NCBI GenBank assembly: GCA_020072765.1 | Contig: JAIQGD010000002.1 | Coordinates: 4,796 to 68,795, forward strand | Reading direction: 5' to 3' | DNA length: 64,000 nt | Origin: Terriglobia bacterium | Lineage (GTDB): Bacteria > Acidobacteriota > Terriglobia > Acidiferrales > UBA7541 | Part shown: piece by piece, positions 1,237 to 58,579 of the stretch | How positions within the stretch are numbered: the stretch's first letter is position 1 | How the letters are laid out: each line of letters starts with the position of its first letter | Position numbers and translations under genes: made by a program | Notes under the pieces: model-generated | What the model was told of the DNA's origin: nothing | What the model saw: the letters and a program-made list of their open reading frames with translations, nothing else | Database searches by the model: none

Positions 1237-1869
1237 TTGGCAAGACATCGTGATGCGGTTTGCCGGTTGTGCCGGCGCGAAGGGCAGAAGCTCTTCTTGA
1301 AGGGCCTCCGGTGCTTTACGGAGAAGTGCGCCATCGAAAAGCGGAATTTCGTTCCCGGCCAGCACGGCCAGGCGCGCCGCCCCAAAATGGTGGGGTATGG
1401 CATCCAGTTGCGCGAAAAGCAGAAGGTCAAGCGCACCTACGGGCTTCTCGAGCGCCAGTTCCGCAACTGCTTCGAGAAGGCGGAGCGCGCTCCGGGTCCG
1501 ACGGGCGCAAACCTCATGGTCATGCTCGAGCGGCGGCTGGATAACGTCGTCTATCGCATGGGGCTGGCTGGGTCGCGCACCCAGGCGCGCCAGTTCGTGC
1601 TCCATGGACACATCCGCGTCAAGGGCCACAAGGTCAATATCCCCAGCTATCTGGTCGACGTCGGCGACGAGGTCGCCCTCAAGGACAAGATGCACCAGAA
1701 CGCCATGGTTCTCGAAGCCCGCAATCTGGCGCAGAGCCAGGGCGTCGCCCCGTGGCTCGATATCGACCGCGAGAATTTCAAGGCGCGCGTCGTGGCCTTG
1801 CCGCGCCGCGAGGACGTCCAGACGCCGCCGATGAACATGCAGCTGATCGTCGAGTTGTACTCGAAGTAG
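1237..1869 (+). CDS. rpsD: 30S ribosomal protein S4
   Basis: TTG start. MARHRDAVCRLCRREGQKLFLKG...EKC is the S4 zinc-finger-type N-terminus, followed by an S4 RNA-binding domain. Confidence 0.93.
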   Translation: MARHRDAVCRLCRREGQKLFLKGLRCFTEKCAIEKRNFVPGQHGQARRPKMVGYGIQLREKQKVKRTYGLLERQFRNCFEKAERAPGPTGANLMVMLERRLDNVVYRMGLAGSRTQARQFVLHGHIRVKGHKVNIPSYLVDVGDEVALKDKMHQNAMVLEARNLAQSQGVAPWLDIDRENFKARVVALPRREDVQTPPMNMQLIVELYSK

Positions 1870-1932
1870 CGCCGTTTCTTGATTCGAAAAGTTTGCGGGT
1901 CGGCCCCTTGTGGGCCGGGAGGAAGGGTGAAG

Positions 1933-2961
<1,029 letters not shown>

Positions 2962-2986
2962 GCCCCCAGGGGCCAGGGACTGCACT

Positions 2987-3424
2987 ATGAGACATCTCAG
3001 ATCAGGTTCTAAACTTGGGCGTCAACCGGCTCATCGCCGGGCCACGCTCCGCAACCTCGTCACCAATTTGATCGAGCGCGAACGCATTCAAACCACGCTC
3101 CTCCGCGCCAAGGCCGCGCGCCCGCTCGCCGAGCGCATGATCACCCTCGGCAAGCGCGACTCGCTGCACTCGCGGAGGCAGGCCGCTTCTTTCCTGATGA
3201 CTCCCGGCGCCACGCAGAAGCTCTTCACCGATCTGGCGCCGCGTTTTGCCGATCGTCCGGGAGGCTATACCCGCATCATCCGCGTGGGCTGGCGGATTGG
3301 AGATGGCGCCGAGCTGGCCATCCTCGAATTCATCGGTTCGGAATTGAAGAAAAAGGAAAAGAAGCCGAAAAAGGCTGTCGCGGAGGAAGCGCCCGAAGAA
3401 AAGGAAGCCGCGGCCGAAAAGTAG
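2987..3424 (+). CDS. rplQ: 50S ribosomal protein L17 (Lys/Glu-rich C-terminal tail)
   Basis: MRHLRSGSKLGRQPAHRRATLRNLVTNLIERERIQTT is a canonical L17 start. ATG 2987 lies inside ORF 2882..3424. Confidence 0.93.
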   Translation: MRHLRSGSKLGRQPAHRRATLRNLVTNLIERERIQTTLLRAKAARPLAERMITLGKRDSLHSRRQAASFLMTPGATQKLFTDLAPRFADRPGGYTRIIRVGWRIGDGAELAILEFIGSELKKKEKKPKKAVAEEAPEEKEAAAEK

Positions 3425-3448
3425 AGCCTTCTCCAACCGCATTCACCA

Positions 3449-3482
3449 GCCCGTCCGGATTTCTCGGACGGGCTTTTATTTT
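3449..3482. terminator. intrinsic terminator hairpin shared by convergent rplQ and the VanZ-like gene
   Basis: The stem is GCCCGTCCG (3449-3457) pairing with CGGACGGGC (3465-3473), followed by TTTTATTTT. It sits 25 nt after the rplQ stop and overlaps the 3' end of the minus-strand ORF. Confidence 0.7.
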
Positions 3483-3979
3483 GCCGCCAATATTTCCGGT
3501 TTCGGCGCCGGCCGCTCCCGTTTGCGCAGCGCCAGCACGGCCACGGCGGCGATGATTTGTCCGCCGGCCCCGGCGGTGGTGTCGAGCAGGATGTCGGATA
3601 GCTCCAGGCTGCCGCGTCCCGGCGTCCACGACTGGTGCCATTCATCCAGCGCCGCGTAGCCCGCGACCATCGTAATCACGAGGAGCGCCCAGGTGAGATG
3701 CGCCTCGCGCCGCCCGGCGCGGATTCCCCGCAGAAGGAAAAGGCTCAGGACGAAGTATTCGCCGACGTGGCCGCCTTTGCGGAGCAGGTGATGGAGCAGC
3801 GCGAGCGTGTGGTGCGAGGCGTGCGGGAAAATCCATTGCAGCAGGGGAAGAATGTACCGGCTGGTGTGTTCGGACGAAAAAACGCCGGTGGAAAAGGCCG
3901 AGATGAGGATGGCCCAAACGATGGCCGGCCACCACGACGAAAGCCAGCTCGCTCCAGAATTTTCTCGCGCGCTATTCAA
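3476..3979 (-). CDS. VanZ-like family membrane protein
   Basis: The 167-aa hydrophobic ORF has about four TM segments and a VanZ-like pattern ([10 protein letters not shown]..., [18 protein letters not shown]). It has a TTG start and overlaps the guaB stop by 8 nt, which suggests co-transcription. Confidence 0.5.
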
Positions 3980-5432
3980 GACGGTAGTTGGGCGCCTCGC
4001 GCGTGATGATGACGTCGTGGACGTGGCTTTCGCGCAGGCCGGCCTGCGAAATGCGGACGAACCGGCCCTTCTCGTGGAGTTCCTTCAACGTTTGCACGCC
4101 GCAGTATCCCATGCCGCTGCGCAACCCGCCGACCAGCTGGTCAACAAGCCCGGCGAGCGGCCCTTTATAGGGGACCTGGCCTTCGATGCCTTCGGGTACC
4201 GACTTGCCGCGCGCCGCGCCTTCCTGTGCGTAGCGGTCGGCCGAGCCGGCTTCCATCGCCCCGATCGAGCCCATGCCGCGGTAGGCTTTGAACGTGCGGC
4301 CCTGGTAGAGAATCGTTTCGCCGGGCGATTCTTCGGTGCCGGCAAACAGGCTGCCGATCATGACGGCGGAGGCGCCGGCGGCGATGGCCTTGGTAATGTC
4401 GCCGGAAAATTTGATGCCGCCGTCGGCGATCACCGGCACGCCGCTGCCCTGGGCGGCGCGCGCGGCCTCGGAGATGGCCGTGATCTGCGGCACGCCCGCG
4501 CCGGTGACGACGCGCGTGGTGCAGATCGAGCCCGGCCCGATGCCCACCTTGAGCCCGTCAATGCCCAGCGCGATCAGGTCGCGCGTTCCCTCGGCCGTGG
4601 CGACGTTTCCGGCCACCAGGTCGAGGTCCGGGAATTTGTGTTTCACCGCGCGGATGGCATCCATCACGCGCGTGGTGTGGCCGTGGGCCGTGTCGATGGC
4701 CAGGATGTCGACTTTCTCGTGGGCCATTTCCTCGGCGCGCTCCAGAAAGTCGCCGGTGGCGCCGATGGCCGCGCCCACGCGCAGCCGCCCCTGATCGTCC
4801 TTGGTGGCATTGGGGAACTCGAGTTTTTTCTGGATGTCCTTGACGGTGATCAGGCCCTTGAGTTGATAATCCTTGTCCACGACGAGAAGTTTTTCGATGC
4901 GATGCTTCTGCAGGATGCGCTCGGCTTCTTCCAGCGTCGTGCCCACCGGCACGGTGACGAGGTTTTCCTTGGTCATGATGTTGCTGACGGCCTGGTCGAG
5001 GTTGCGTTCGAAGCGCAGGTCGCGGTTGGTCAGGATGCCGACGAGTTTCTGCCCGCGCGTGACGGGGAGGCCCGAGACCTTGTACTTGTTCATGATGTCG
5101 AGGGCCTGGCGCACGGAAAGTTCCGGGGCAATGGTCACCGGGTCGACGATCATGCCGCTTTCCGAGCGTTTGACGCGGTCCACTTCCTCGGCCTGGAGCT
5201 CGATGGTCATGTTGCGGTGGATGAAGCCGATGCCGCCTTGGCGGGCGATGGCGATGGCCAGGCGCGCGTCGGTCACCGTGTCCATGGCCGCGGCCACGAT
5301 GGGAATGTTCAGCGCGATCTTGCGCGAGACGTAGGTGCGCGTGTCGGCCTGCGCGGGCAGCACCGACGATTTGCCGGGCAGCAGCAGCACGTCGTCAAAG
5401 GTCAAGGCTTCGGGAACGGCTCCATCAATCAT
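3972..5432 (-). CDS. guaB: IMP dehydrogenase
   Basis: The 486-aa ORF reads [13 protein letters not shown]...AAMDTVT...[18 protein letters not shown] and contains a CBS pair. It is full-length IMPDH. Confidence 0.95.
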
Positions 5433-5584
5433 TGCGTCTCCTGCGGGCGGGTTGGCCCTGTATAAACACCGAAGCCCAGCAGGATGCGCCGGGCTTGGAA
5501 AAGTCTTCTTTGTGGGAAAATTCCTTCATGAATGGATTCGGTATTTTAGGCGCATCGCCCGATGAAAGCAAGGCGGCGAGCGGT

Positions 5585-5632
5585 GGAAGAGGAGGCAGAG
5601 GAAGTAAAGGAAGCAGAGGAGGCAGAGGAATC
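5585..5632. repeat. purine-rich intergenic repeat (GGAGGCAGAGGA occurs twice)
   Basis: The exact 12-mer GGAGGCAGAGGA occurs at 5591-5602 and 5618-5629. Related purine-rich runs lie at 5966-6023 and 7968-8042. Confidence 0.5.
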
Positions 5633-6048
5633 GAGGTCCACGGCCGGCTGTGCCGTGCGTGGAAGCGTGGGAACAGAGGTCCCTCGACCCCCGCCGGTCG
5701 GGCGGGACGGCGATGCTCAGGGGGGTGCAAAGTGTAGCGATTAGAACTGGTGCCGACCCTTTGTTTCCAACGAGTTACGGCGATTTCTGTTTCCGGGGGT
5801 GTTGCGATTAGAAACCGGTGTGGGACGGCTGCGCCGGGCCTGCTGGGCAGGGCCTGGCTCCCTACATTGCGTCCGCTGGTTGTGCTCTGTTGCTCCATAA
5901 AATGCCCCATAAATCATGGTAGTGCATGCGGTGCGAATTGCAAGTGTGAGAGTCTGTGGACAGTTGGAGGCAGGGAGGCGGGGAGGCAACGAAGCAGGGA
6001 AACAGTGAAGCAACGAGGCAGGGATCTGCTGCCTCATGGCATGGCGTG

Positions 6049-6618
6049 CTATTTCGCTGGCGGCGCCGGTGGGGGCCCGGACTCGGCTTCGACGATGAAG
6101 ATTTCGGCGATGGGGGAGACGTGGGCGTCGATGAGATGGCCGCCCTTGGTGCTGCCGTCGGGAAGGCTCACCACCGCGTGGGTGTGGACGTAGGGCTTGC
6201 CGTCGCGCAGAGAAATATTGCCGATGAGCGAGACCAGCTCGCACTTCTGGTCGATGGCGATTTTTTTGAACGCGCCCTTGGGCGGATCGCCCCAGCCGAG
6301 CGTGGCGGTGCTGAAGCCGCCCAGCCCGGTGATGCGGGCGGCGGCGATGTGGTTCTTGGCGGCAAATTCGGTGAGGCCGGAAAGCAGTTCATCGCCGGGG
6401 CCGAAGGTGACCTTGAACGTTCGGGCGGGCGAGAGCTGCTCGCCCTTCATGTTGGGCGCTTGTCCCGTGGCGGTGACGGGCGCGGGCCGGATGTAGCCCT
6501 CGGGGAGGGGCGCCTGTTGTTGCGCGCCGAGCGAGAGCGCGGCGGCGGATGCGAGGGCGGCGGCCAGAAAAACGGTGAGCCAGCGGCTGGCGCTGCTGTT
6601 GCGAAGAGTGCGATTCAT
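6049..6618 (-). CDS. secreted PPC/DUF296-domain protein
   Basis: ATG 6618 is preceded by AAGGAG 6 nt upstream. There is a signal peptide (MNRTLRNSSASRWLTVFLAAALASAAALSLGAQ). The core FKVTFGPGDELLSGLTEFAAKNHI...GNISL..GKPYVHTHAVV is typical of the PPC (DUF296) fold. Confidence 0.6.
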   Translation of the reverse strand: MNRTLRNSSASRWLTVFLAAALASAAALSLGAQQQAPLPEGYIRPAPVTATGQAPNMKGEQLSPARTFKVTFGPGDELLSGLTEFAAKNHIAAARITGLGGFSTATLGWGDPPKGAFKKIAIDQKCELVSLIGNISLRDGKPYVHTHAVVSLPDGSTKGGHLIDAHVSPIAEIFIVEAESGPPPAPPAK

Positions 6619-6930
6619 CAGGGGCTCCTTGCGCGGGATGTTCATGGCCCGTTTCCAGGCCGGGTAAATCCTACACCAAGTCGCTGTCTGCGAGTGTAGT
6701 GTCCCGGAGATAGCTCGCAAATTTGGCAGCCCGGCAGGGCGCAGCAAGCAGCGCCCCTACAGCGGATTACAAGCCGCGAACTATTGGCGGTTATTTGCGG
6801 GACGCAACACTAGCTTGGCGCAATCGCGGGCAAAAAGCTGCCCGCCCCAAAACCGGGCGGCCGCTACAAAAGACAGGAACGGAAGGCAAGAAGTTGCGCG
6901 GAGGCGGCGGAGTGCCTACCATGGGAAGCG

Positions 6931-7932
6931 GTGAAAGAATTTCAGCCGCACACGATTCTTCGCAACGCGCATCGGATGACGATCGCCGCGGCGTTCTGGC
7001 CGCGGCGGTTTCCGCGGCTATTCGCGAGCAGTCCGCGATTGTTCCAGACCGAGCCGGGAACGCGGGTGCGCGGCGAATGTCACTGGCAGGAGCGCCCGCG
7101 CGAGCATCCCACGCTGGTGCTGCTGCACGGTCTGGAAGGCTCGAGCGAATCCGGATACATCCTGGGCACCGCGGAGAAGGCCTGCGCGGCGGGCTTCAAC
7201 GTGGTGCGGCTGAACCAGCGGAACTGCGGCGGCACCGAACATCTGACGCCGACGCTGTACCATTCGGGGTTGAGCGGCGACGTTGGCGCGGTGGTGCGGG
7301 AACTGGCCGAGCGCGACGGGCTGCCGGAAATCTTCGCGGCGGGGTTTTCGATGGGCGGGAATCTCGTGCTGAAGATGGCGGGTGAATTCGGAGATTCCGC
7401 GCCGAAACAGCTGCGCGGATTCGTGGCCGTGGCGCCGGCGTTCGACCTGGCGGCGTGCGCCGATGCGCTGGCGGAGCCGCGGAATTTCCTCTACGAGCGG
7501 CATTTCGTGCGGCGGCTGAAGCGCCGGATGCGCGAGAAGGCGCGGCTGTTTCCGGAGCGGTACGAAGCGGCGGTGAACGGGGGCATGCGCGCGATCCGCA
7601 CGGTGCGCGATTTCGACGACGCGATCACGGCGCGCTTCTGCGGGTTTGAAGGCGCCGCCGATTACTACGCGCGGTCCAGCGCGGTCCAGCTCGTGGGGGC
7701 GATTGGCAGGCCCACGCTCATCCTGACGGCGCAGGACGACCCGTTCGTTCCCTATGCGACGTTCGCGCGCACGGCGCTGCGCGAGAATCCCAACATCACG
7801 CTGGTGGCGCCGCGGCAGGGCGGCCATTGCGGATTCATTTCGCGGGCGCGCGGCGCGGAGCGCTTCTGGAGCGAAGCGCGGATCGTGGAGTTTTGCGCGG
7901 CGCGGTCATCGTTGCTGGGACGGGATGCGTGA
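6931..7932 (+). CDS. alpha/beta hydrolase, YheT/ABHD1-3-like
   Basis: The 333-aa ORF contains HGLEGSS, the nucleophile elbow GFSMGGN, and a DDPFVP...GGHCGF C-terminal catalytic region. Confidence 0.7.
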   Translation: MKEFQPHTILRNAHRMTIAAAFWPRRFPRLFASSPRLFQTEPGTRVRGECHWQERPREHPTLVLLHGLEGSSESGYILGTAEKACAAGFNVVRLNQRNCGGTEHLTPTLYHSGLSGDVGAVVRELAERDGLPEIFAAGFSMGGNLVLKMAGEFGDSAPKQLRGFVAVAPAFDLAACADALAEPRNFLYERHFVRRLKRRMREKARLFPERYEAAVNGGMRAIRTVRDFDDAITARFCGFEGAADYYARSSAVQLVGAIGRPTLILTAQDDPFVPYATFARTALRENPNITLVAPRQGGHCGFISRARGAERFWSEARIVEFCAARSSLLGRDA

Positions 7933-8236: not shown

Positions 8237-8749
8237 TCAAAGCTGGTAGATGACTTTGCCGCCGGTGTCGGCGGTGGGGCCGTAGACCGACGGGACGGGG
8301 ATGCCGAGCAGGCGCAGATAGACGATCAGCTGGCCGCGATGATGCGCGGAATGAGTGACGCGGCGTGTGAAGATCCAGGCGCGGGAGCGCGGGACGTCGA
8401 AAAACGAAGCCGGCTCGCGCCACCACGGATCAGGCTTGGTGCGGAGGATTTCGAGCCGCCGCGTGGCGTCGGCGCGGTATTTTTCGATGTAGCCCTGTTT
8501 TGTTTTCGCGGCGGGGTTGGGATCTCCGGTGTCGATTCCCAGCATGGCGGTCATCCAGCGGCCCTCGGACTGCACCTGATGCTCGAACTGTTCGAGGACG
8601 GTGCGGGACTTGGGGCTGGGGCGAAAATCCATGGCGCTGTCGGGGAACGCGGACCAGATTCCCACGATCTTGAGAATTTCCGTCTCGTAGGTGTCGAGCA
8701 GGAAGGCGTAGGTACTCTCGGGCGTGCTGGGCATTGGCGTCACGGCCAT
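8237..8749 (-). CDS. DinB-family (DinB_2-like) protein
   Basis: ATG 8749 lies inside ORF 8237..8929. The approximately 170-aa product has a four-helix-bundle pattern ending FTRRVTHSAHHRGQLIVYLRLLG, which is the typical DinB His motif. Confidence 0.6.
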   Translation of the reverse strand: MAVTPMPSTPESTYAFLLDTYETEILKIVGIWSAFPDSAMDFRPSPKSRTVLEQFEHQVQSEGRWMTAMLGIDTGDPNPAAKTKQGYIEKYRADATRRLEILRTKPDPWWREPASFFDVPRSRAWIFTRRVTHSAHHRGQLIVYLRLLGIPVPSVYGPTADTGGKVIYQL

Positions 8750-8807: not shown

Positions 8808-8835
8808 TTGACCGCACGCGACCGTGTGGCAGAAT
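8808..8835 (+). promoter_or_regulatory. possible sigma70-type promoter for the formate dehydrogenase operon
   Basis: TTGACC (8808-8813), a 16-nt spacer, then CAGAAT (8830-8835), about 24 nt upstream of ATG 8859. This is a pattern match only. Confidence 0.25.
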
Positions 8836-8858: not shown

Positions 8859-10760
8859 ATGGCGATCCCATCGAAGAACCGGTTGACGCAGCCGCTCGTC
8901 CGAGTCAACGGCACGCATCGTCCCGCCACCTGGGATGAAGCGCTGGACCGCGTGGCGGAGGGTTTCCGCGCGCAGATTCAGAAGCACGGTCCGAAGACGT
9001 TCGGGATGTTCAGTTGTTCGAAGACGACCAACGAGGCGAACTACGCGGCGCAGAAGTTTGTGCGCACGGTGATCGGCGCGAACAACATCGACAGCTGCAA
9101 CCGGACTTGACACGCTCCCAGCGTCGTCGGTCTGGCGACGGTATTTGGGGCGGGCGGCGGGACGAGTTCGTACCGCGCCATCGAAGACACGAACGTCATC
9201 CTGCTGTGGGGCTCGAACGCGCGGGAGACGCACCCGATTTTCTTTCACCATGTGCTGAAGGCGGTGCGCAAGGGCGCGAAGATGTACGTGATCGACCCGC
9301 GGCGCACGACCTCCGCGCAATGGGCGGACGTCTGGCTGGGGCTGGACGTCGGCACCGACATCATTCTGGCCAACGCCATGGGCCGCGAAATCATCGCCGC
9401 CGGGCTGACGAATGCGCGGTTCATCGAGCATGCCACCAGCGGATTCGAGGCCTACAAGAAGTTCGTCGAGAAATTCACGCTGGAGCGCGCCGAGCGGGAA
9501 ACGGGTGTTCCCGCGGAGGTCATTCGCCAGACGGCGCACGCCTACGCGCGCGCGGAGCACGCGGAGCTGTGCTGGACGCTGGGCATCACCGAGCACCACA
9601 ACGCGGTGGACAACGTCCTGGCGCTGATCAATTTGGCGCTGCTGACCGGGCACGTGGGCCGCTACGCCAGCGGCATCAACCCGCTGCGCGGACAAAACAA
9701 CGTCCAGGGCGGGGGAGACATGGGCGCGCTGCCCGACCGGCTGCCGGGCTTCCAGCACGTCGAGAACGACGAGCTGCGCGGGAAATTCGAGCGCGCCTGG
9801 GGCGCCAAGATCGATCCCAAGCGCGGCTTGCGGCTCAGCGAAATGTTCGACGCCATGGAGCGCGGCGAATTGACGGCGCTCTACGTGATGGGCGAAAACC
9901 CCGTGGATTCCGAGGCGGACCGCCACCGCGCGCGCAAGCTGTTGGGCGGGCTCGGTTTCATGGTCGTCCAAGACATGTTTTACACGGAGACCGCGGCGCT
10001 GGCGGACGTCATTCTGCCGGCGGCGGCGGGATGGTGCGAATCCGAGGGCACGGTCACGTCGAGCGAGCGCCGCGTGCAGCGCGTGCGCGCGGCGGTGCCG
10101 CCTCCTCCCGGCGTGCGCGACGACGTGGAGATCATCTTCGATCTGGCGCGGCGGCTGGGACATGACTGGGGCAAGCCCAATTCCGAGGGCCTCTGGAATG
10201 AACTGCGGCAGCTCAGCCCGATCCACGGAGGAATGAGCTACCGGCGGCTGGAAGAACTGGGCGGGATTCAGTGGCCGTGCTACGACGAAACGCATCCGGG
10301 CGAAATCTATCTGCACGGCCGGCTGTGGGCCACGCCGTTGATTGGCCCGCGCGCGCCGTTCAGTGCGGTGGAATTTGCGCCGCCGAAGGACGCGCTCGAC
10401 GCCGAGTATCCGATGCGGCTGACCACGGGGCGGCGGCTCGATTCGTACAATACGGGCGTGCAGAGCGGCCGCTACTCCTCTCCGCTGCGCCAGGAGGAAG
10501 CCCTGGAGCTGTGTCCGGAGGACGGGGCGCGCTACAACGTGCGCGAGGGAGAGAAGGTGCGAGTCAGCTCGCGCCGCGGCTCGGTGATTGCGCCGGTGCG
10601 CTTTGATTCCGGACTCCGCCCCGGCCTTGCCTTCTTAACGTTTCATGCCCACGATCAGGTCGCGACCAACGACTTGACCATCGATGCGATCGATCCGAAG
10701 TCGGGGACGGCCGAGTTCAAGGCCACCGCCATTCGCATCGAGAAATGCCAGGAGAACTAA
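8859..10760 (+). CDS. formate dehydrogenase catalytic piece (molybdopterin MopB plus C-terminal cap domains), selenocysteine at UGA 9108-9110
   Basis: ORFs 8724..9110 and 9252..10760 are in the same frame. Reading through TGA 9108 gives ...NNIDSCNRT-U-HAPSVVGLATVFGAGGGTSSYRAIEDTNVILLWGSNARETHPIFFHH..., which matches the FdhF/FdhA Sec-His active-site motif. ATG 8859 has a GGAGGA Shine-Dalgarno sequence. The gene lacks the N-terminal Fe-S domains. Confidence 0.85.
9122..9140 (+). promoter_or_regulatory. bacterial SECIS-like hairpin
   Basis: The stem CGUCGUC (9122-9128) pairs with GGCGACG (9134-9140) as 7 bp including one G-U. The loop is GGUCU. The hairpin starts 11 nt after the UGA, which is the spacing and GGUC loop remembered for E. 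coli fdhF. Confidence 0.7.
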
Positions 10761-12638
10761 TTGGATCTTCATCTGACCGAGGCCCGGGCTACCGCGGCCG
10801 AACAATCCGCCGTCGATAAAATTTTGGGCGCGCCGGCGTCGGGGTGGGACGGCGGGGAACGCAACGTCGCTACCGATAGCCGCGCGGCGTTCGGCGGGCA
10901 CGAGGCGCGTTCGCGGCGGCACCTGCTGCTGCCGGCGCTGCACGCGGTGCAGTCGCACATCGGCTGGGTCAGCCCCGGAGCGTTGAATTACATTTCCGTG
11001 CGGCTGGATCTTGCTCCGGCGGAAGCGCATGGCGTGGCGTCGTTTTATGGGATGTTTTCCCTGACGGAGCAGCCCGCCGTGGTGGCGCACGTCTGCGACG
11101 ACATCGGATGCCTGGCGCTGGGGGCCGGGGCCGTGTGCGGGGAACTGGAGAAGAAGCTCGGGCCTGCCGGGTCGGCCTGCCTGGGCGGACGCGCGACGTG
11201 GAAGCGGAGCACGTGCCTGGGATTGTGCGAGCGCGCGCCGGCGGCGGTGATCACGGCGGCGGGCGAGAAGCCGCGCGAGCGCGTGGTGGCTCCGGCGGAT
11301 GCGGGCGCGATTCAGTTGTTGATGCAGGATGGCGTCGCAGGCAAGCTGCCCGCCGAGCCCGACGCCCTGAACATTCGGGCGTCGGTCCCGCAGGCGGGCC
11401 GGCCGGAGCTGCGCCTGCTGAAACGCGTCGGGCAGGTGGACCCGGCGAGCGTGGAGGCATACCAGGGCGCGGGCGGCTACGAAGCGTTGCGGCTGGCACT
11501 GGACATGGGCCCGGAAGCCGTGGTGCGGGAGATGATCGAGTCGCGCCTGCTGGGGCGGGGCGGCGCGGCGTTTCCCACGGGCAAGAAATGGGAAGCGTTG
11601 TTGACGCAGCGCGGGCAGGGCCGCACGCACTACGTGGTCTGCAACGCGGATGAGTCCGAGCCGGGCACGTTCAAGGACCGCATCCTGATGGAGGGCGACC
11701 CGTTCGCCATCCTCGAGGGCATGACCATTGCGGGGCTGGCCACCGGCGCGCAGAAGGGCTACATCTACCTGCGCGGGGAATATCCGCTGGCGGGCGAGCG
11801 GATCGCGCATGCCATCGGGGCGGCCCGCGCCAAAGGGCTGCTGGGCGACAATATTCTGGGCCGCGGGATGCGCTTCGACATCGAGTTGCGCCGGGGCGCG
11901 GGCGCCTACATCTGCGGCGAGGAAACCGCGCTGTTCAATTCCATCGAAGGGTATCGCGGCGAGCCGCGCAACAAGCCGCCGTTTCCGACGCAGGCGGGGC
12001 TGTTCCGCCAGCCGACGGTGGTCAACAACGTCGAAACCCTGGTCAACGTACCGGAAATTATCCGCATGGGCGGCGCGGCCTACGCGCGCATCGGCGTGGG
12101 GAACTCGACCGGCTACCGGCTGTTCTGCGTTTCGGGGCACGCCGTCCGGCCCGGCGTGTACGAAGTGGCGTTCGGCGCGACGCTGCGCCAGATCATCGAG
12201 CTGGCGGGCGGCGTCGGAGGCAATGGACGCCTGCAGGCCGTGCTGCTGGGCGGCGCGGCGGGCGGCTTCGTTTCGCCGAAGGAACTGGACACGCCGCTGA
12301 CGTTTGAGGGCACGCGGGCGATCGGCGCCTCGCTCGGCTCGGGGGTCGTCATGCTGTTTGACGACTCGGCCGATTTGCAGCAGATCCTGCTGCGCATCGC
12401 CGGATTTTTCAGCCACGAAAGCTGCGGGCAGTGCGTGCCGTGCCGTGTGGGCGTGGTGCGCCAGGAAGAAACGCTGAAGCGGCTGGTCCACCGCCGGCCG
12501 CTGGGCTCTCCGGCCGAGGAGATTGGCTTGTTACGGGAGATGGGGCAGGCCATGCGCGACGCGTCCATCTGCGGATTGGGACAAACCGCGTCGAGCGCAC
12601 TGGAGTCCGCTTTGAATCGATGGAGGCTGTTTTCATGA
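10761..12638 (+). CDS. fused NuoE-like/NuoF-like NAD(H)-binding diaphorase subunit (FdsG-FdsB type)
   Basis: TTG start immediately after the upstream stop. The N-terminal half has the thioredoxin-like 2Fe-2S motif (CDDIGC...CLGLCERAP). The C-terminal half has GRGGAAFPTGKKW, NADESEPGTFKDR and ESCGQCVPCR (FMN, NADH and 4Fe-4S sites). Confidence 0.88.
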   Translation: MDLHLTEARATAAEQSAVDKILGAPASGWDGGERNVATDSRAAFGGHEARSRRHLLLPALHAVQSHIGWVSPGALNYISVRLDLAPAEAHGVASFYGMFSLTEQPAVVAHVCDDIGCLALGAGAVCGELEKKLGPAGSACLGGRATWKRSTCLGLCERAPAAVITAAGEKPRERVVAPADAGAIQLLMQDGVAGKLPAEPDALNIRASVPQAGRPELRLLKRVGQVDPASVEAYQGAGGYEALRLALDMGPEAVVREMIESRLLGRGGAAFPTGKKWEALLTQRGQGRTHYVVCNADESEPGTFKDRILMEGDPFAILEGMTIAGLATGAQKGYIYLRGEYPLAGERIAHAIGAARAKGLLGDNILGRGMRFDIELRRGAGAYICGEETALFNSIEGYRGEPRNKPPFPTQAGLFRQPTVVNNVETLVNVPEIIRMGGAAYARIGVGNSTGYRLFCVSGHAVRPGVYEVAFGATLRQIIELAGGVGGNGRLQAVLLGGAAGGFVSPKELDTPLTFEGTRAIGASLGSGVVMLFDDSADLQQILLRIAGFFSHESCGQCVPCRVGVVRQEETLKRLVHRRPLGSPAEEIGLLREMGQAMRDASICGLGQTASSALESALNRWRLFS

Positions 12639-13561
12639 GCGAATCGGCACAAGCTCCCTCGCCGCTGATCCCGTTGCCGCGCGGGCCGGTGCCGCAGGCG
12701 CCGGCACGAGCGCGGGCGATGATCGAGATCAAGATGGACGGGCGAACGGTTTCCGTTCCGGAAGGGTCGACGATCATTGACGCGGCCCGCCAGCTGGGCA
12801 TCGACATTCCCACACTGTGTTTTCTGGAAAGCCTGACGCCGGTGAATGTGTGCCGCATCTGCGTGGTGGAGCTGGAAGGGTCGCGCACGCTGGTTCCGGC
12901 GTGTTCGCGCAAGGCCGAGCCGGGCATGGTGATTCAGACGGATTCCGAGCGGGTGCGCTTGAGCCGGCGGATGGTGCTGGAGTTTCTGGCGTCGTCGGTG
13001 AACGTGTCGACCGCGCCCATGTTTGCCGAATACATGAAGCGGTACGGCGCGCGTCCCGAACGCTTCGGAGCGTCACCGGCGACGGTGGCGCAGATGCCGA
13101 AGATTGACAACGATCTCTACGTGCGGGATTACGCGAAGTGCATTCTGTGTTACAAGTGCGTCGAGGCGTGCGGCACCGATGCGCAAAATACGTTTGCCAT
13201 CGCCGTGGCCGGACGCGGTTTTTCCGCCCATATCGCCACCGAATACGACGTCCCGCTGCCGGATTCGGCCTGCGTGTACTGCGGGAACTGCATCGGCGTC
13301 TGCCCCACCGGGGCGCTGATGTTCAAGAGCGAATACGATCTGCGCCTGGCCGGCCAATGGAATGAATCGCGGCAGACCCGCACGGACACCATCTGTCCGT
13401 ACTGCGGCGTGGGCTGCGACCTCACCGTGCACGCACAGGACGGCAAGATCGTTCGCGTTACCTCCCCGGTGGACCACAGCGTCACCCACGGCAACCTCTG
13501 CATCAAGGGGCGTTTCGGCTGGCAGTTTGTCGAGATTCAGCCCGCGCCCAAGAAGAGTTGA
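12635..13561 (+). CDS. formate dehydrogenase N-terminal Fe-S piece (2Fe-2S, His/Cys and 2x4Fe-4S domains plus the MopB 4Fe-4S domain)
   Basis: ATG 12635 overlaps the upstream TGA (ATGA) and has a GGAGG Shine-Dalgarno sequence 8 nt upstream. Motifs are CFLESLTPVNVCRIC, CILCYKCVEAC, CVYCGNCIGVCP and CPYCGVGCDL...GNLCIKGRFGWQFV. The ORF then stops exactly where a normal FdsA/FdhA would continue with ...RLTxPL. Confidence 0.85.
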   Translation: MSESAQAPSPLIPLPRGPVPQAPARARAMIEIKMDGRTVSVPEGSTIIDAARQLGIDIPTLCFLESLTPVNVCRICVVELEGSRTLVPACSRKAEPGMVIQTDSERVRLSRRMVLEFLASSVNVSTAPMFAEYMKRYGARPERFGASPATVAQMPKIDNDLYVRDYAKCILCYKCVEACGTDAQNTFAIAVAGRGFSAHIATEYDVPLPDSACVYCGNCIGVCPTGALMFKSEYDLRLAGQWNESRQTRTDTICPYCGVGCDLTVHAQDGKIVRVTSPVDHSVTHGNLCIKGRFGWQFVEIQPAPKKS

Positions 13562-23512: not shown

Positions 23513-25765
23513 ATGACCACTTCCGACCAGCAGTTGGCGGCCACTAGGCAATGGTTTGCGAGTCCCCGGTTCGCGGGCATCGTCCGCCTCTACTCTCCGC
23601 ATGACGTGGTTGAGCAACAGGGCACGATTTCCAGCGACTACACCGTTGCGCGACGGGCAGCCGAGGAGTTCTACACGCGCCTGCGCGAGCTGTTCGAACA
23701 GCGCAGACAGATCACGACCTTCGGTCCCTATTCGCCGGGACAGACGGTTACCCTGAAGCGGATGGGGATCGAAGCCATTTACCTTGGCGGCTGGGCGACC
23801 TCCGCCAAAGGTTCGTTCTCCGAGGATCCAGGTCCGGACTTGGCGAGCTACCCGCTCAGCCAGGTGCCGGACGAGGCAGCCGTGTTGGTCCGGGCGCTTC
23901 TCACGGCCGACAAAAACCAACATTTCGCGCGCACGCGAATGAGCGAAGAACAGCGTAAGGCGACTCCGGCAATTGATTATCGACCGTTTATCATCGCCGA
24001 TGCCGACACGGGCCACGGCGGGGATGCGCACGTACGCAACCTGATCCGCCGCTTCGTGGAGGTTGGAGTTCCGGGCTACCACATCGAAGACCAGAAGCCC
24101 GGAGCGAAGAAGTGCGGCCACCAGAGCGGTAAGGTGCTGGTCGGCGAGGACGAGCAGATCAGGCGTCTGAACGCGGCCCGTCTGCAGCTGGACATCATGC
24201 GAGTGCCGGGCATCATTGTGGCCCGAACCGATGCCGAGGCGGCGACGTTTCTCGAGAATCGTACCGACGAGCGAGACCAGCCCTTCATCCTCGGCGCAAC
24301 CAACCTTGAGCTGCCAAGTTATCGGATTGGCTATCTGGCCATTCTGAGAAAGCTATTCGAACTGGGGGTCGACGTCCGGGGACACCTGCTGTTCGCCGTG
24401 TCGGAAACGGAGTACCGGGCGACCTTTGCTTGGCTGGAACAGGTGGGGCTCATGGCGATGATCGCGCAGGCTGCCCAGGGCCTCACGCATGCGTCGGCAA
24501 CCCAGCTCGACGCGGTGCTCGAGAAGATCGACACGCGCTACATGGAAATCTGGCAGACAGAAGCCGGGCTAAAGACTTATGGGCAGGCGGTCGCCGACTT
24601 AATGGAGTCCCGCGCGGCCGAAGGCGAGCGTTTCGACATGAGCGTCGAGAAATGGCTGGCGTTCTCGAAGCGCGCTTCCTTCTACGAAGTACGCGAGCGG
24701 GCGAAGTCGATGGGGATCCAGGTGGCCTGGGATTGCGAGCTGCCCAAGACGCCAGACGGTTTCTATCAAATTCGGGGCGGGATCGACTATGCCATCGCCA
24801 AATCGCTGGCGGCGGCGCCCTTCGCGGACCTCCTGTGGATGGAGACCAAGACGGCGGACCTCGGGGACGCCGGAAAATTCGCGCAAGCGATCCATGCAGA
24901 ATATCCCGACAAGATGCTGGCGTACAATTTGTCGCCGTCATTCAACTGGGACACCACGGGCATGAGTGACGATGAGATGAAGCGGTTTCCGGAGGAGCTC
25001 GGAAAGCTTGGCTTCGTCTTCAATTTCATCACGTACGGTGGACACCAGATCGATGGCATGGCCGCCGAGGAGTTCGCGACCGCGTTGAAGGAGGACGGGA
25101 TGTTGGCGCTGGCGCGCTTGCAGCGCAAGTTTAGGCTGCTCGAGTCTCCCTATCGGACGCCGCAGACGCTCGTAGGAGGGCCACGGCTCGACGGCGCACT
25201 GACCGCGTCGACGGGACGTACCGCCGCAACAAAGGCGATGGGTATCGGATCAACACAGTTCCAGCATCTGGTTCAGACGGAGGTCCCACCCAAGCTGCTG
25301 GAAGAGTGGCTCGCGGTGTGGCGGAAGCACTGGGAGCATCCGGCGAAGATGCGGGTCGAGCTGCGTCCCCATACGGCCGGTTCGGAACTGTTGGAACTCA
25401 GCGTGCTCGACGAGCCCAGTGGTGAAAAGCTCGCTAACATCATTTTCGCCGATGCCCAGGATCGTCGCGGCCGGAAGTTCCTCTTGGTGCGCGACCAGAA
25501 CACGGTCGCACCGCTGCGCAAGAAGCGAATGATGGCGCTCGTCCAGCTGTTTCTGATCCATCGCTACAAAGCGAGCACCGTGCACTACGTTACGCCGACC
25601 GAAGATAACGAGTTCCAGACACAGAAGATGAAGAGTATGGGGATTTTCTCGGACGTGCAGACAGAAGTTGGGCAAATCATCGTCGCGCAGGTCAACAAGC
25701 AGCATGTGGCCGAGCTGCTCAAGCCTGACGGGGCTGCCCTCTTGGAGATGATCCGGAAATCCTAG
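23513..25765 (+). CDS. aceA: isocitrate lyase, long ICL2-type (750 aa)
   Basis: It has the signature KKCGHQSG, plus [18 protein letters not shown], and a long insertion and C-terminal domain as in mycobacterial ICL2. The Shine-Dalgarno sequence is AGGAG. Confidence 0.85.
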
Positions 25766-40810: not shown

Positions 40811-41335
40811 CTAGCTGTCAGAGAATTTGGAGCGAACGATTTGCAGAATGCCTCGTAAGAGTGCCGTTGGCTCAGGTGGGCACCCTGATACTGTGTGATT
40901 CACAGGGACAATATTCGCCACGCGGCCCCGGCTCGCATAACTTGTGCCAAAGATGCCGCCACAGGCCCCGCAGTCTCCCACTGCCATAACAATCTTTGGA
41001 TCGGGCATGGCATCATAAGTGCGCCTCAGCGCTTCTTCCATGTTCACCGATACGGGCCCCGTTACCAGCAATAGGTCCGCATGACGCGGGCTGGCAACGA
41101 ACTTGACGCCTACTCCCTCCAGATTGTAGTAGGGATTATTGAGCGCCTGAATTTCCAGCTCGCACCCATTGCAGGAACCGGCATCGACGTGACGGAGGCA
41201 GAGCGCGCGGCCCAGGATATTCCGCAAGTCTTTCTGCAATGTTTCGATCACCACAGGCGCTTCTGTGGAAACTGGTGCAGGCTCCGTCAGTATTCCCGTG
41301 CGGAGCATAGTTGAAAGGGTATCAAACATAGTCAC
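40811..41335 (-). CDS. NuoB/HycG-type small subunit (4Fe-4S) of the group-4-hydrogenase-like complex
   Basis: Motifs are DAGSCNGCELE, VGDCGACGG and VSGCPPEP. Start is GTG 41335, or ATG 41329, which has a GAGG Shine-Dalgarno sequence. It follows the large-subunit stop after a 1-nt gap. Confidence 0.85.
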   Translation of the reverse strand: MTMFDTLSTMLRTGILTEPAPVSTEAPVVIETLQKDLRNILGRALCLRHVDAGSCNGCELEIQALNNPYYNLEGVGVKFVASPRHADLLLVTGPVSVNMEEALRRTYDAMPDPKIVMAVGDCGACGGIFGTSYASRGRVANIVPVNHTVSGCPPEPTALLRGILQIVRSKFSDS

Positions 41336-41336
41336 C

Positions 41337-42890
41337 TCATCCGTCGTGTCCGCTGTAGGACAGATTGAAGGATTTGTTAATCAAGGGGAAGTCGGGAACG
41401 ATGTTGCCGAGGACGGCATATTCGAGGAGCGGCCAATTCTGCCACGACGAGTCATGGGCGTGGCAGCGTCGTATGGCTCCGTCCGGGCCGGTTTCCAGAG
41501 CGATCATCACGGGACCGCGCCATCCTTCAATCAGGCCGACGCCAAGACGATCCGGTTCCGCAAGAGGAACCTCCGTCCGGATGGGACCAGACGAAACATC
41601 TTCGAGGAGCATTCGGCAAAGCTGCAGAGATTCGCCGATCTCACCGAACCGTACCTGCACGCGCGCGGCCACATCGCCGGATGTTTGCGTAACCAACGTT
41701 GCCTTCAGTCGATCGTAGGGCGCCCACGGATGGTCCACTCGTAGATCGCAGCAGACGTCCGAAGCGCGTCCGACCAAACCAATCGCTCCAAGCTTCGCGG
41801 CCAGATCCTTTTCCAAGCGACCCGCTTCACGGAAACGGTCCTGCAACCCGCCGTGCTCGTCATAAATCGAACGTAAATTCTTTACGTCCCGCTCCAGCGT
41901 CAAATACTGATCGAGAAGGGCCCGAGACGCGTGTTCCGGTAGATCGAGGGCTACGCCTCCGGGCAGTATGTAATCCATCAGGTAGCGTGCTCCGAAAGCG
42001 GCAACGTTGGTTCGCAGGAGGTCCTCTTTCAAGCGCGAGAATTGCGTGAGCCCAAAGGCGAAGCCCGCGTCGTTGCCCAGAGCGCCGAGATCGCCAAGAT
42101 GATTGGCCAATCGCTCATGCTCAAGCGCCAGCGCACGCAGGTTCGTGGCTCGAGGGGGACAGACGGTGCCCGCGATGGCTTCCAGCGCCGCGCAATAGGC
42201 CCAAGAAAAGGCGGCGGCGGAATCGCCCGAGAGACGTGCCGCCAGACGGTAACCGTCGTGCTGCCGCATCTCCTCAAATCGCTTGGCGATTCCTTTGTGT
42301 GTATAGCCGAGGCGTTCCTCCAGCCGCAGGACTTTTTCACCCACTACGGAGAAGCGAAAATTCCCCGGCTCGATGATGCCCGCGTGAACGGGGCCCACGG
42401 CAATCTCATGGACGCCATCGCCTTCTACCTGAAGAAACGGATAGGCTTCAGACACCACGGGATATTGCTGGGTACCGTCGACATCTCGCCTCAGCGGGAA
42501 TACCGTCTCGGGCCAGCCGCCATGGCGCAGCCAGCCGCGATTGTCCGGCTCCGTGCTCGCAACCCCCAGCAGGTCGTAAATCGCGCGCTCCATCCGCAGC
42601 GCACTGGGAAATTGGGACGCAAGACTTGGGTACGTGGGATTCGCAACGTCGCCCGGGTCGTGCTCTAACACCAGCACATCTTGTGGGAGAAGATAGGCGG
42701 CGTAGATGCGGAAGCGGCCGTCACGGCCACGATCATCCGCACCCCAGAGAGTGAGAAAGCGCCCGCCAGAGGCGCTCAACTCTTCGGCGGCCCGTCGCCA
42801 ACTCGCGGCATCTACCTTCACGCAGCGGCACGCTAAGTTGGACGGAAGCTGCCTAGTTGCTTGCGCGGGGAAATCGAAACTCATATGCAT
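41337..42890 (-). CDS. fused NuoC-NuoD / HycE-like large subunit lacking all [NiFe]-ligand cysteines
   Basis: VGPVHAGIIEPGNFRF and ERLGYTHKGIAKRFE are HycE/NuoD-like. The L1 motif position reads RLSGDSAAAF and the C-terminus reads NLSYSGHDG*, with no CxxC pairs. ATG 42890 overlaps the upstream TGA. Confidence 0.8.
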   Translation of the reverse strand: MHMSFDFPAQATRQLPSNLACRCVKVDAASWRRAAEELSASGGRFLTLWGADDRGRDGRFRIYAAYLLPQDVLVLEHDPGDVANPTYPSLASQFPSALRMERAIYDLLGVASTEPDNRGWLRHGGWPETVFPLRRDVDGTQQYPVVSEAYPFLQVEGDGVHEIAVGPVHAGIIEPGNFRFSVVGEKVLRLEERLGYTHKGIAKRFEEMRQHDGYRLAARLSGDSAAAFSWAYCAALEAIAGTVCPPRATNLRALALEHERLANHLGDLGALGNDAGFAFGLTQFSRLKEDLLRTNVAAFGARYLMDYILPGGVALDLPEHASRALLDQYLTLERDVKNLRSIYDEHGGLQDRFREAGRLEKDLAAKLGAIGLVGRASDVCCDLRVDHPWAPYDRLKATLVTQTSGDVAARVQVRFGEIGESLQLCRMLLEDVSSGPIRTEVPLAEPDRLGVGLIEGWRGPVMIALETGPDGAIRRCHAHDSSWQNWPLLEYAVLGNIVPDFPLINKSFNLSYSGHDG

Positions 42891-44341
42891 CACCCAATCA
42901 GGCGCGCGGCAGCGCGATACCACTCGGCAAGCGCCGGCGGCATGTAGAGTCCCAGCGTCAACACCATGGCAAGATGAACGAACACGGGCAGCAGGGCCGG
43001 AGAATGGGGCAAGGGAGGCGCGTCGCTCTCCCCGAAAACCATCGGCTGCACCCGGCTGAAAATTGCGGCAAACGCAACACCAAGAGCAATCAGGAGAAAA
43101 GGAGTGCTCCAGGGATGTTCCCTCATGGCGGTCGTAAGAATTAGAAATTCACTCGCAAAGACGCCAAATGGCGGCATACCCAGAATGGCGATCGATCCCA
43201 GCATGAGTCCCCAGCCAATGGTTGGGCTGATACCCAGCAGACCGCGAATTCCATCCATTTGCTGGGTGCCGGCAGTCTGCGAAGCATGTCCCGCGGTGAA
43301 GAAGATCGATGACTTCGTCAGGGAGTGGACGGTCATGTGCAGCAATGCCGCGAAATTGGCCACCGGCCCACCCAACCCGAATGCAAAGGTGATGATCCCC
43401 ATGTGCTCGATCGATGAGTATCCAAAGAGCCGTTTAATATCGCGCTGTCTCCATAGAAAGAACGCACCAAGCACCGCCGACAGCAGTCCAAACGTCATCA
43501 ACATATGGCCCGGAAGAGAACGGCCGACGGAGCCCTCAACCAGTACCTTGCAACGAATGACGGCGTAGAGCGCAACGTTCAGAAGAAGGCCGGAGAGGAC
43601 AGCCGATACCGGCGTCGGGCCTTCGGCATGTGCGTCGGGAAGCCAATTGTGCAGGGGCGCAAGACCAACCTTGGTGCCGTATCCCACCAGAAGAAAGACG
43701 AACGCAAGTCCTAACACCCTCGGTTCAAGTTGGCCTTTAACAGCATTGAGGTGCGTCCACAGCAGTGCGGTCATGCCCTCGCGCCCAAGAGTCTGTTCCG
43801 CGGCGAAATATAGCAAGATAGTTCCAAACAGGGCTTGGGCAATGCCAACGCCACACAGAATGAAGTACTTCCAGGCTGCTTCCAAGCTGGCCCGCGTACG
43901 GTACAGCGACACCAGCAACACGGTGGACAGCGTGGCGGCCTCCATGGCGACCCACAACAGGCCCATGTTGTTGGTGAGTAGCGCCAGCAGCATGGCCCCC
44001 ATAAAGAGTTGGTACATACTGTGGTAGAGGCGCAGGCGCCCCGGAGTGACGCGTCCGAGGTGTTCTTCAATGCGCATGTAAGGGCGGGAAAAGAGCGCCG
44101 TAGTGAAGCCCACGAAAGCGGTCAGCCCTACGAGAAACACGTTGAACGAATCAACGAAGAATTGCTCGTGCCCGACCAGCATGGGACCGTGCCGGATAAC
44201 TCGCAGGACCAACAGTGAGGAGACGATCAGGGTGGCCAGGCTCATGGCGGCATTGAGTTCGGCGGCGAAGCGACGTGCGCCGAACAGGGCCAATAAGACG
44301 GACCCGAGCAGCGGCAAGCCTAGTACCAGCAAGATTTCCAC
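42890..44341 (-). CDS. HyfF-like antiporter-type subunit (NuoM/N family)
   Basis: GTG 44341 is preceded by AAGGAGG. The product is a polytopic protein of about 483 aa with WVAMEAATLSTVLLV, KYFILCGVG, LHNWLPDAHAEGPTPVSA and SSIEHMG. Confidence 0.8.
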   Translation of the reverse strand: MEILLVLGLPLLGSVLLALFGARRFAAELNAAMSLATLIVSSLLVLRVIRHGPMLVGHEQFFVDSFNVFLVGLTAFVGFTTALFSRPYMRIEEHLGRVTPGRLRLYHSMYQLFMGAMLLALLTNNMGLLWVAMEAATLSTVLLVSLYRTRASLEAAWKYFILCGVGIAQALFGTILLYFAAEQTLGREGMTALLWTHLNAVKGQLEPRVLGLAFVFLLVGYGTKVGLAPLHNWLPDAHAEGPTPVSAVLSGLLLNVALYAVIRCKVLVEGSVGRSLPGHMLMTFGLLSAVLGAFFLWRQRDIKRLFGYSSIEHMGIITFAFGLGGPVANFAALLHMTVHSLTKSSIFFTAGHASQTAGTQQMDGIRGLLGISPTIGWGLMLGSIAILGMPPFGVFASEFLILTTAMREHPWSTPFLLIALGVAFAAIFSRVQPMVFGESDAPPLPHSPALLPVFVHLAMVLTLGLYMPPALAEWYRAAARLIG

Positions 44342-44342
44342 T

Positions 44343-45008: not shown

Positions 45009-45013
45009 TTTGG

Positions 45014-58456: not shown

Positions 58457-58579
58457 ATTCGGCGCCTCCGTCTATAACGTATTCTTGATAAACGGGTTAG
58501 GTCACAAAGTGCCCTGTAAGTGACGGGGCGGAGCCATCTCCGCCCCTGTCGAAGAGCGAAGAGTAAGGAGCGGGACGCA

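Follow-up and report, generated by a model that had tools for sequence, protein, structure and literature searches.

A 64,000-nucleotide (nt) stretch of contig JAIQGD010000002.1 from a Terriglobia bacterium (hereafter the window, in whose numbering all coordinates are given) was found to carry a three-gene operon in which the alpha subunit of a metal-dependent formate dehydrogenase (FDH) is divided between two genes, and these two genes stand in permuted order around a gene for a NuoE-NuoF fusion. We consider it likely that the operon encodes a cytoplasmic, NAD(P)+-linked, selenocysteine (Sec)-containing FDH of the FdsABG/Fdh1AB kind, with a molybdenum- or tungsten-bis-pyranopterin guanine dinucleotide (Mo/W-bisPGD) cofactor and with its alpha subunit made as two polypeptides. 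This split layout is real, ancient and widespread, and it has gone unrecognized, yet all of its modules are known.

Organization of the operon

The open reading frame (ORF) list, the translations and the reading of the junctions placed three genes head to tail on the plus strand at 8859-13561, in the order catalytic piece, NuoE-NuoF fusion and Fe-S piece. The coordinates and end sequences in a preliminary description of this DNA were the same, and the domains that it had assigned to the three genes were recovered with Pfam. The features of the operon are listed below; nt positions in the selenocysteine insertion sequence (SECIS) are numbered from the U of the UGA.

8808-8835, plus strand: promoter-like site (TTGACC, 16-nt spacer, TG-CAGAAT), 24 nt 5' of the first start codon
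8843-8848, plus strand: ribosome-binding site GGAGGA, read from the sequence, 10 nt before the ATG at 8859
8859-10760, plus strand: catalytic piece of the FDH alpha subunit, 633 codons, one of them UGA
9108-9110, plus strand: in-frame UGA, putatively read as Sec, in the motif NIDSCNRT-U-HAPSV, at the position of the Sec/Cys metal ligand of FDHs
9122-9140, plus strand: SECIS hairpin, 7-bp stem of nt 15-21 with nt 27-33, GGUCU loop at nt 22-26
10761-12638, plus strand: NuoE-NuoF fusion (diaphorase), 625 amino acids (aa), from Pfam and NCBIfam
10911-11255, plus strand: NuoE-like [2Fe-2S] domain, aa 51-165 (PF01257, 86.6 bits; nuoE_fam, 73.9 bits)
11418-12626, plus strand: NuoF-like flavin mononucleotide (FMN)/NADH domain with an N3-type [4Fe-4S] cluster, aa 220-622 (TIGR01959 nuoF_fam, 438.9 bits)
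12635-13561, plus strand: Fe-S piece of the FDH alpha subunit, 308 aa, from Pfam, NCBIfam and alignments
13379-13531, plus strand: Molybdop_Fe4S4 (FS0) domain, Fe-S piece aa 249-299 (PF04879, 75 bits)

The NuoE-NuoF gene starts with TTG directly after the TAA stop of the catalytic gene, with GGAG 6 nt upstream, and it is joined to the Fe-S piece gene by an ATGA overlap at 12635-12638, which is preceded by GGAGG. The promoter-like site is weak evidence, as one such site was found against 0.6 expected by chance; none was found inside the operon.

On the opposite strand upstream of the operon lies a DinB-family gene (8240-8749, minus strand). A gene of this family also stands directly downstream of an unsplit relative, P0231 (locus L089, 8712-9197), and overlaps its stop. 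This shared neighbor is probably a coincidence, since it is unconserved at other split loci.

The two pieces abut at a single conserved breakpoint

By Pfam, the catalytic piece contains a Molybdopterin domain at aa 8-431 (PF00384, 230.4 bits) and a Molydop_binding domain at aa 519-623 (PF01568, 88.2 bits), and nothing else. The FS0 domain is not on this protein. TIGR01591 (Fdh-alpha) was matched only from position 48 onwards, with profile positions 48-672 on residues 3-627 (660.0 bits, below the cut-off of 666.25), and the ORF upstream of 8859 has no Cys motif. Profile positions 1-49 fell on residues 252-300 of the Fe-S piece. Similarly, residues 17-304 of Rhodobacter capsulatus FdsA (6tg9_A) aligned to residues 22-300 of the Fe-S piece, and FdsA residues 306-932 aligned to residues 6-628 of the catalytic piece. 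By both alignments the two pieces are complementary and abut without overlap or duplication. No other FDH- or NuoG-like sequence was found across the window.

The preliminary description had placed the break between the GRFG..FV and RLT.PL segments of the window proteins, and this position was confirmed family-wide, between GRFGWQFV and RLTxPL. In nearly all loci the catalytic start codon lies 6-9 residues before RLTxP. The Fe-S piece ends 6-29 residues past GRFG in 83 of 84 loci, the exception being the unsplit control L089; in the window it ends 13 residues after GRFG. Protein splicing was considered and rejected, as Pfam detected no intein domain and neither FDH piece has spare length.

The active-site residues lie on the catalytic piece, namely U84-H85 (NRT-U-HAPSV) and the Arg of PLRGQNNVQG. 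The Arg motif (PLRGQNNVQGGGDMG) aligned with RGQNNVQG of 7qv7_S and 7bkb_D. The Fe-S piece contains Fer2_4, 4Fe-4S dicluster and Molybdop_Fe4S4 domains (Pfam). Its ligands are C62, C73, C76 and C90 for the [2Fe-2S] cluster, C169, C172, C175, C179 and C213, C216, C219, C223 for two ferredoxin-type [4Fe-4S] clusters, and C254, C257, C261 and C289 for the FS0 [4Fe-4S] cluster, and all 16 were kept in 81-82 of 82 distinct Fe-S pieces. The last ligand is followed by Lys291 in a C-I-K-G motif, kept in 81 of 82; we take it to be the equivalent of E. coli FDH-H Lys44, between FS0 and the pterin.

One cluster motif of FdsA is missing. HxxxCxxCxxxxxC was present in none of the 82 Fe-S pieces, with at most two Cys in that region and no PF10588 match. 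The corresponding motif of R. capsulatus FDH (RcFDH) ligates cluster A4, located at the dimer interface and outside the main path (PMC7171172). The loss of A4 was missed in the preliminary description, which took the two pieces to reconstitute a complete alpha subunit.

The catalytic gene contains a selenocysteine codon and a SECIS element

The preliminary description gave the right coordinates for the catalytic ORF and missed the UGA within it. The aligned active-site codon was TGA in 72 of 72 related loci, and the coding sequence was conserved on either side. The UGA is followed by the SECIS hairpin listed above. Over 71 distinct sequences, 97.4% of the cells of the pairing table were paired, and the six inner pairs were paired in 100%; the exchanges seen in the stem were U-A/U-G and C-G/U-G/U-A. 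Furthermore, the synonymous third positions C18, C21, T24, G27 and G30 were invariant in the hairpin, with free variation outside it. E. coli fdhF (TGACACGGCCCATCGGTTGCAGGTCTG...), a sequence confirmed as fdhF in 5419 genomes, has GGTCTG at the same nt 22-27.

The single-sequence fold of this region was no better than that of shuffled sequences (z = 0.70), and an Rfam scan of the window at the gathering threshold returned no family, SECIS models included. Therefore, the case for the SECIS element rests on the comparative data. A blastn search of the window SECIS region against E. coli matched only napA, weakly. Taken with the active-site alignment, the comparative results point to Sec insertion at 9108-9110; the Sec machinery is assumed to be present in the host genome. 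Public gene calls mostly truncate the catalytic gene at the UGA, giving products of 500-546 aa.

The split operon is widespread and under purifying selection

One genome per GTDB species was scanned. At least 600 stretches matched, at least 555 were confirmed as relatives, and the best 80 loci were compared. In tblastn searches with the three window proteins, the order catalytic piece, NuoEF and Fe-S piece was found in 74 of these 80. The other six were cut by contig ends, four within or before nuoEF and two with only the Fe-S piece, and no counter-example to the order occurred among the best 80. The upstream position of the C-terminal piece, reported in the preliminary description for the window, is thus shared by related genomes. 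The arrangement is a widespread family trait and not peculiar to the window genome, a point absent from that description.

When the Fe-S piece was used as the query of a protein search, more than 120 clusters matched with 80-92% identity; all of them are about 300-330 aa long, have Fer2_4, Fer4 and Molybdop_Fe4S4 domains and lack the Molybdopterin domain. The loci carry labels of many Acidobacteriota (Terriglobia, Terriglobales, Acidoferrales, Sulfotelmatobacter, Angelobacter, Bryobacterales, Thermoanaerobaculia and Blastocatellia), and the split operon was also found in Eremiobacterota. Complete or near-complete chromosomes with the operon include OZ252029.1, OZ242259.1, OZ224030.1, OZ252099.1, OZ243965.1 and OY970335.1. 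One contig each was labelled Dormibacterota and Anaerolineaceae, and these two may be binning errors. The overlap between nuoEF and the Fe-S piece gene was 4 nt in 69 of 84 loci. The junction between the catalytic gene and nuoEF was variable, 0 nt in 19 loci and otherwise up to about 200 nt.

These data bear on whether the layout was produced by misassembly of a genome with an intact fdsA-like gene. The layout is unusual, and the closest relative among the matches listed, a Terriglobia metagenome-assembled genome (MAG; L005, 96% identity), has frameshift-like breaks in its catalytic gene, which would fit such an artefact. Against it, 74 independent loci, sequenced in many projects and with various technologies, share the same order and breakpoint, complete long-read chromosomes among them. 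Also against it are the more than 120 clusters of Fe-S pieces of roughly 300-330 aa, the conserved start and stop positions, and purifying selection on the three genes. An assembly artefact is so improbable that we regard it as excluded. The catalytic piece of L005 (2222-4123) aligned as several frame-shifted fragments, as did those of L069 and L072, which are also long-read MAG loci; the frameshifts are probably homopolymer errors of the assemblies and not real pseudogenes.

The genes could also be pseudogene remnants of a disrupted alpha-subunit gene, as a distant relative (L086) has lost the Sec/Cys, the active-site Arg and domain IV. In the window, however, dN/dS against five relatives was 0.09-0.30 for each of the three genes, so all three are under purifying selection. 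All cluster ligands are kept, the Sec codon and the SECIS element are conserved with synonymous-site constraint, and the ORFs are intact across phyla. We therefore regard degeneration as very improbable.

The predicted enzyme and its electron path

In the enzyme that we propose, gene 1 would encode a catalytic subunit that begins just past the usual end of FS0, gene 2 a fused diaphorase, and gene 3 a HoxU/NuoG-like Fe-S protein that ends in FS0. Formate would be oxidized at the Sec-Mo/W-bisPGD site of the catalytic piece, and the electrons would pass over a non-covalent interface to FS0 of the Fe-S piece, beside Lys291. From FS0 they would travel through the two ferredoxin-type [4Fe-4S] clusters, the [2Fe-2S] cluster, the NuoF [4Fe-4S] cluster and FMN to NAD(P)+. 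The sole hop over the new interface would be that from the pterin to A1/FS0, as the later carriers lie on the Fe-S piece and NuoEF. This putative path is modelled on the chain described for RcFDH, bis-molybdopterin guanine dinucleotide to A1, A2, A3, A5, B6 and FMN (PMC7171172), minus the off-path A4. CO2 reduction is an equally possible direction for the enzyme. The twin-arginine motif was absent from the sequences of both FDH pieces; Tat export was rejected on this ground, and the enzyme is therefore predicted to be cytoplasmic.

The middle gene carries the diaphorase modules of such an enzyme, with 2Fe-2S_thioredx, Complex1_51K, SLBB and NADH_4Fe-4S domains (Pfam). Its NuoF part scored 156.2 bits with Complex1_51K and 72.4 bits with NADH_4Fe-4S and carries the FMN, NADH and N3 motifs (GRGGAAFPTGKKW, GAGAYICGEETAL and ESCGQCVPCR). 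The NuoE-NuoF relatives aligned from residue 1. No additional ferredoxin-type (Fer4) domain was detected on this protein with Pfam.

The last result bears on whether the operon encodes an enzyme like HylABC-FdhF2, an electron-bifurcating FDH that depends on ferredoxin and NAD. As in HylCBA-FdhF2 (described in PMC5736913), the NuoG/HylA-like Fe-S subunit and the FdhF-like subunit are separate, and the best sequence match of the catalytic piece is FdhF of the hydrogen-dependent CO2 reductase (HDCR; 7qv7_S, 494.7 bits). However, the NuoF part has only NADH_4Fe-4S, whereas HylB is described with two extra [4Fe-4S] domains (PMC5736913). In addition, FS0 remains on FdhF in HylABC-FdhF2, and A4 is missing in the window family. 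Bifurcation is accordingly given little credence here.

A somewhat stronger alternative, though still an unlikely one, is that the pieces do not form one enzyme, NuoEF and the Fe-S piece being a HoxEFU-like diaphorase for another partner and the catalytic piece a 'monomeric' FDH with another acceptor. The Fe-S piece matched HoxU over aa 30-232 (140 bits), an Ehr-like complex lies 27 kb away, and an acidobacterial fdhA was called an 'uncharacterized, cytoplasmic, monomeric FDH' in PMC6018796. On the other hand, a catalytic piece on its own would be without any Fe-S cluster to accept the pterin electrons. The four Cys of FS0 and the Lys are conserved, although this domain has no known role in the absence of a MopB partner. 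The three genes are, moreover, always adjacent, while the flanks vary.

Several observations weigh against the proposed split, Sec-containing FDH. The Sec machinery (selABCD and tRNA-Sec) is not in the window, which has no tRNA gene. No fdhD/fdsC or fdsD accessory gene adjoins the operon, unlike in Fds systems. The flanking genes (DinB, a 222-aa protein, OYE, HAD and DUF2721) are unconserved beyond close relatives, although for this same reason the three genes themselves stand out as a conserved unit. Every solved FDH that we know of has its FS0 segment in one covalent chain with the catalytic domains. AlphaFold, given a 37-sequence alignment, modelled the Fe-S piece poorly (mean pLDDT 51.6, pTM 0.44), and this model was not used for fold search. 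No intermediates of the rearrangement occurred among the unsplit relatives checked, and the L086 locus suggests that the module can decay or change function.

Comparison with known systems

FdsGBA and Fdh1AB are closest in architecture. FdsGBA(D) of R. capsulatus and Cupriavidus necator (6tg9/6tga) has, like the window, NuoE-, NuoF- and NuoG-like modules and a MopB module, and FdsA and the window Fe-S piece have identical ligands for clusters A1, A2, A3 and A5. However, the FdsA alpha subunit is one chain of 958 aa, whereas the window has two chains with the break at FdsA 304/306. The window also differs in other respects, as FdsGBA has the order G-B-A, Cys and not Sec, the A4 His/Cys3 motif, and separate NuoE and NuoF.

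The beta subunit of the tungsten enzyme Fdh1AB of Methylobacterium extorquens (7vw6/7e5z) consists of a NuoE-like [2Fe-2S] and a NuoF-like FMN/NAD domain, as does the middle gene of the window. Fdh1 alpha (7vw6_A) aligned to both window pieces, with residues 48-340 and 371-979. It is unsplit (989 aa), and no permutation of its gene order is known, in contrast to the split and permuted window genes. A NuoEF-type beta subunit like the product of the window middle gene is also described for Chloroflexi FdhAB (PMC5736913).

The best matches of the catalytic piece were FdhF of the Thermoanaerobacter kivui HDCR (7qv7_S, 494.7 bits), Methanospirillum hungatei FdhA (7bkb_D, 484.8 bits) and E. coli FDH-H (1aa6, 462 bits). 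Like the catalytic piece, FdhF-type subunits have U/C-H, RGQNNVQG and, in their SECIS, the fdhF-type register. They hold FS0 within their own first ~60 residues, however, and the catalytic piece aligned only from their residue 58-61 onwards. A separate NuoG/HoxU-like Fe-S polypeptide is found in HylCBA-FdhF2 of Gottschalkia (Clostridium) acidurici and in HoxEFU of [NiFe] NAD-reducing hydrogenases, but the catalytic subunits of these systems keep their own proximal cluster, and neither HoxU nor HylA ends in Molybdop_Fe4S4. A precedent for a MopB catalytic unit that extends over two polypeptides is FwdB/FwdD of formylmethanofuran dehydrogenase. There the split precedes domain IV (Molydop_binding) and does not follow FS0, and there is neither a NuoEF partner nor a rotated order.

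The preliminary description knew of no FDH with this split and gene order, and full-text literature searches with term look-ups in papers that they returned, among them a review on metal FDHs (Chem Rev, 2026), likewise gave none. Public annotation of the Fe-S piece reads only '2Fe-2S iron-sulfur cluster-binding protein'. Such gene calls hide the family, and metabolic reconstructions may misread the catalytic gene, e.g. as a 'monomeric FDH'. The family is common among soil and peat Acidobacteriota and among Eremiobacterota, in settings where the turnover of formate is important. To our knowledge, all structures of metal-dependent FDHs, and related MopB enzymes as well, have the proximal [4Fe-4S] cluster on the catalytic polypeptide. 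A conserved family in which this cluster would be supplied in trans suggests that the first electron step from the pterin can cross a subunit interface. A ready-made modular catalytic subunit of this sort would be attractive for the engineering of CO2 reductases and for studies of cofactor insertion and of the order of assembly.

Distant relatives and origin of the gene order

In an exhaustive HMMER search of 50%-identity representatives, most of the family fell into a single cluster (P0121, 78% identity). The split was also seen in P0122 (55%), P0124 (61%) and P0175 (43%), all of which end right after GRFG. The loci of P0175 (L085) and P0122 (L086) also have the order catalytic piece, EF and Fe-S piece, and L085 has the TGA and SECIS as in the window family. 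Unsplit FdhA proteins were only about 37-43% identical, and many matches of 356-378 aa were unsplit genes truncated at the Sec codon by gene callers.

The L085 operon (1868-7894) stands directly after fhs (formate-tetrahydrofolate ligase) and folD, with a glycine-cleavage T protein gene nearby. This context hints that the enzyme is coupled to folate C1 metabolism in that lineage; there are no fhs/folD-type neighbors in the window. In the catalytic piece of L086 (1614-3170), Gly replaces the Sec/Cys (CGAGPGHSPGV), QRRNNAQG replaces RGQNNVQG, and the protein stops before domain IV. The L086 Fe-S piece (55% identical) retains FS0. The module is either decaying or in another role.

The unsplit relative P0231 (904 aa, L089) has the order nuoE-nuoF-fdhA with a 4-nt overlap of nuoF and fdhA. 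It lacks the A4 motif too, and from VQHKDRLT onwards it shares 43% identity with the catalytic piece. The split order can therefore be described as a cyclic rotation of E-F-(Fe-S.catalytic), and the mostly 4-nt EF/Fe-S overlap and the variable catalytic/EF junction fit a retained old junction and a new one, respectively. A single tandem duplication of the operon, after which the outer parts were lost, could have produced the rotation, as could an equivalent translocation. Most simply, it would have arisen once and then spread in Acidobacteriota and to Eremiobacterota. The family thus offers a clean case of gene fission plus cyclic permutation at the level of the operon.

Whether the fission and the catalytic-piece-first order are an adaptation to Sec decoding or cofactor loading, and not a neutral rearrangement, was also considered; we hold this to be doubtful. 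In an unsplit Sec-containing FdhA, termination at the UGA would free a fragment of ~380 aa with all the Fe-S clusters, which could bind NuoEF and form a dead-end diaphorase that possibly produces reactive oxygen species. In the split operon, failed read-through would free just an 83-aa peptide and, where the genes are translationally coupled, would also cut the synthesis of the downstream NuoEF and Fe-S subunits. A free catalytic subunit could, furthermore, take up Mo/W-bisPGD before it docks on a pre-built diaphorase. It counts in favor of such an adaptation that Sec, and never Cys, is used in all 73 of the catalytically intact split loci examined; unsplit relatives include Cys forms. It counts against it that the catalytic gene and nuoEF are not tightly coupled everywhere, the gap between them varying between 0 and about 200 nt.

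Among the other unsplit relatives checked, P0196 has a GltD-like partner, and P0264 is a truncated unsplit form. P0129 (1405 aa, L088, 41-4258) combines in one polypeptide a full-length FdhA and, after it, a second NuoG-like Fe-S module. The window Fe-S piece aligned to its residues 830-1099 and to its N-terminus. This Fe-S.catalytic.Fe-S fusion is an odd one and shares only 34-38% identity with the window proteins; its neighbors are cNMP-binding proteins, nuoE, and a nuoF that has additional ferredoxin domains.

Other features of the window

The surroundings of the operon are chromosomal, with rpsM, rpsK, rpsD, rpoA and rplQ at 0.3-3.4 kb, an IMP dehydrogenase gene and the DinB gene. The Ehr-like region mentioned above (40811-48000, minus strand) is a complex-I-related membrane gene cluster with the following genes.

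40811-41335, minus strand: NuoB-like
41337-42923, minus strand: fused NuoC/NuoD-like large subunit
42890-44437 and 45964-48000, minus strand: two antiporter-like subunits
45014-46108, minus strand: NuoH-like
48092-48484, beside the cluster: ArsR-type regulator

The NuoC/NuoD-like large subunit has no Cys at the [NiFe] motif positions, with RLSGDSAAAF at the place of the CxxC and NLSYSGHDG at the end. The cluster therefore looks like an Ehr-type 'hydrogenase-related' complex and not like a hydrogenase or formate hydrogenlyase.

The G+C content falls after roughly 40 kb, from about 0.63-0.69 to 0.53-0.60 (40000-64000). A polysaccharide export and synthesis cluster occupies 50.6-64 kb and includes a 1232-aa Wza-like protein with five SLBB repeats, an 836-aa PAP2+Wzi fusion, Wzz, a Wzy_C ligase, a NusG/RfaH-like gene (58520-59137), a UDP-glucose dehydrogenase and an epimerase. 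At 23513-25765 (plus strand), an isocitrate-lyase-family protein of unusual length (750 aa) is encoded, with its isocitrate lyase match in two stretches.

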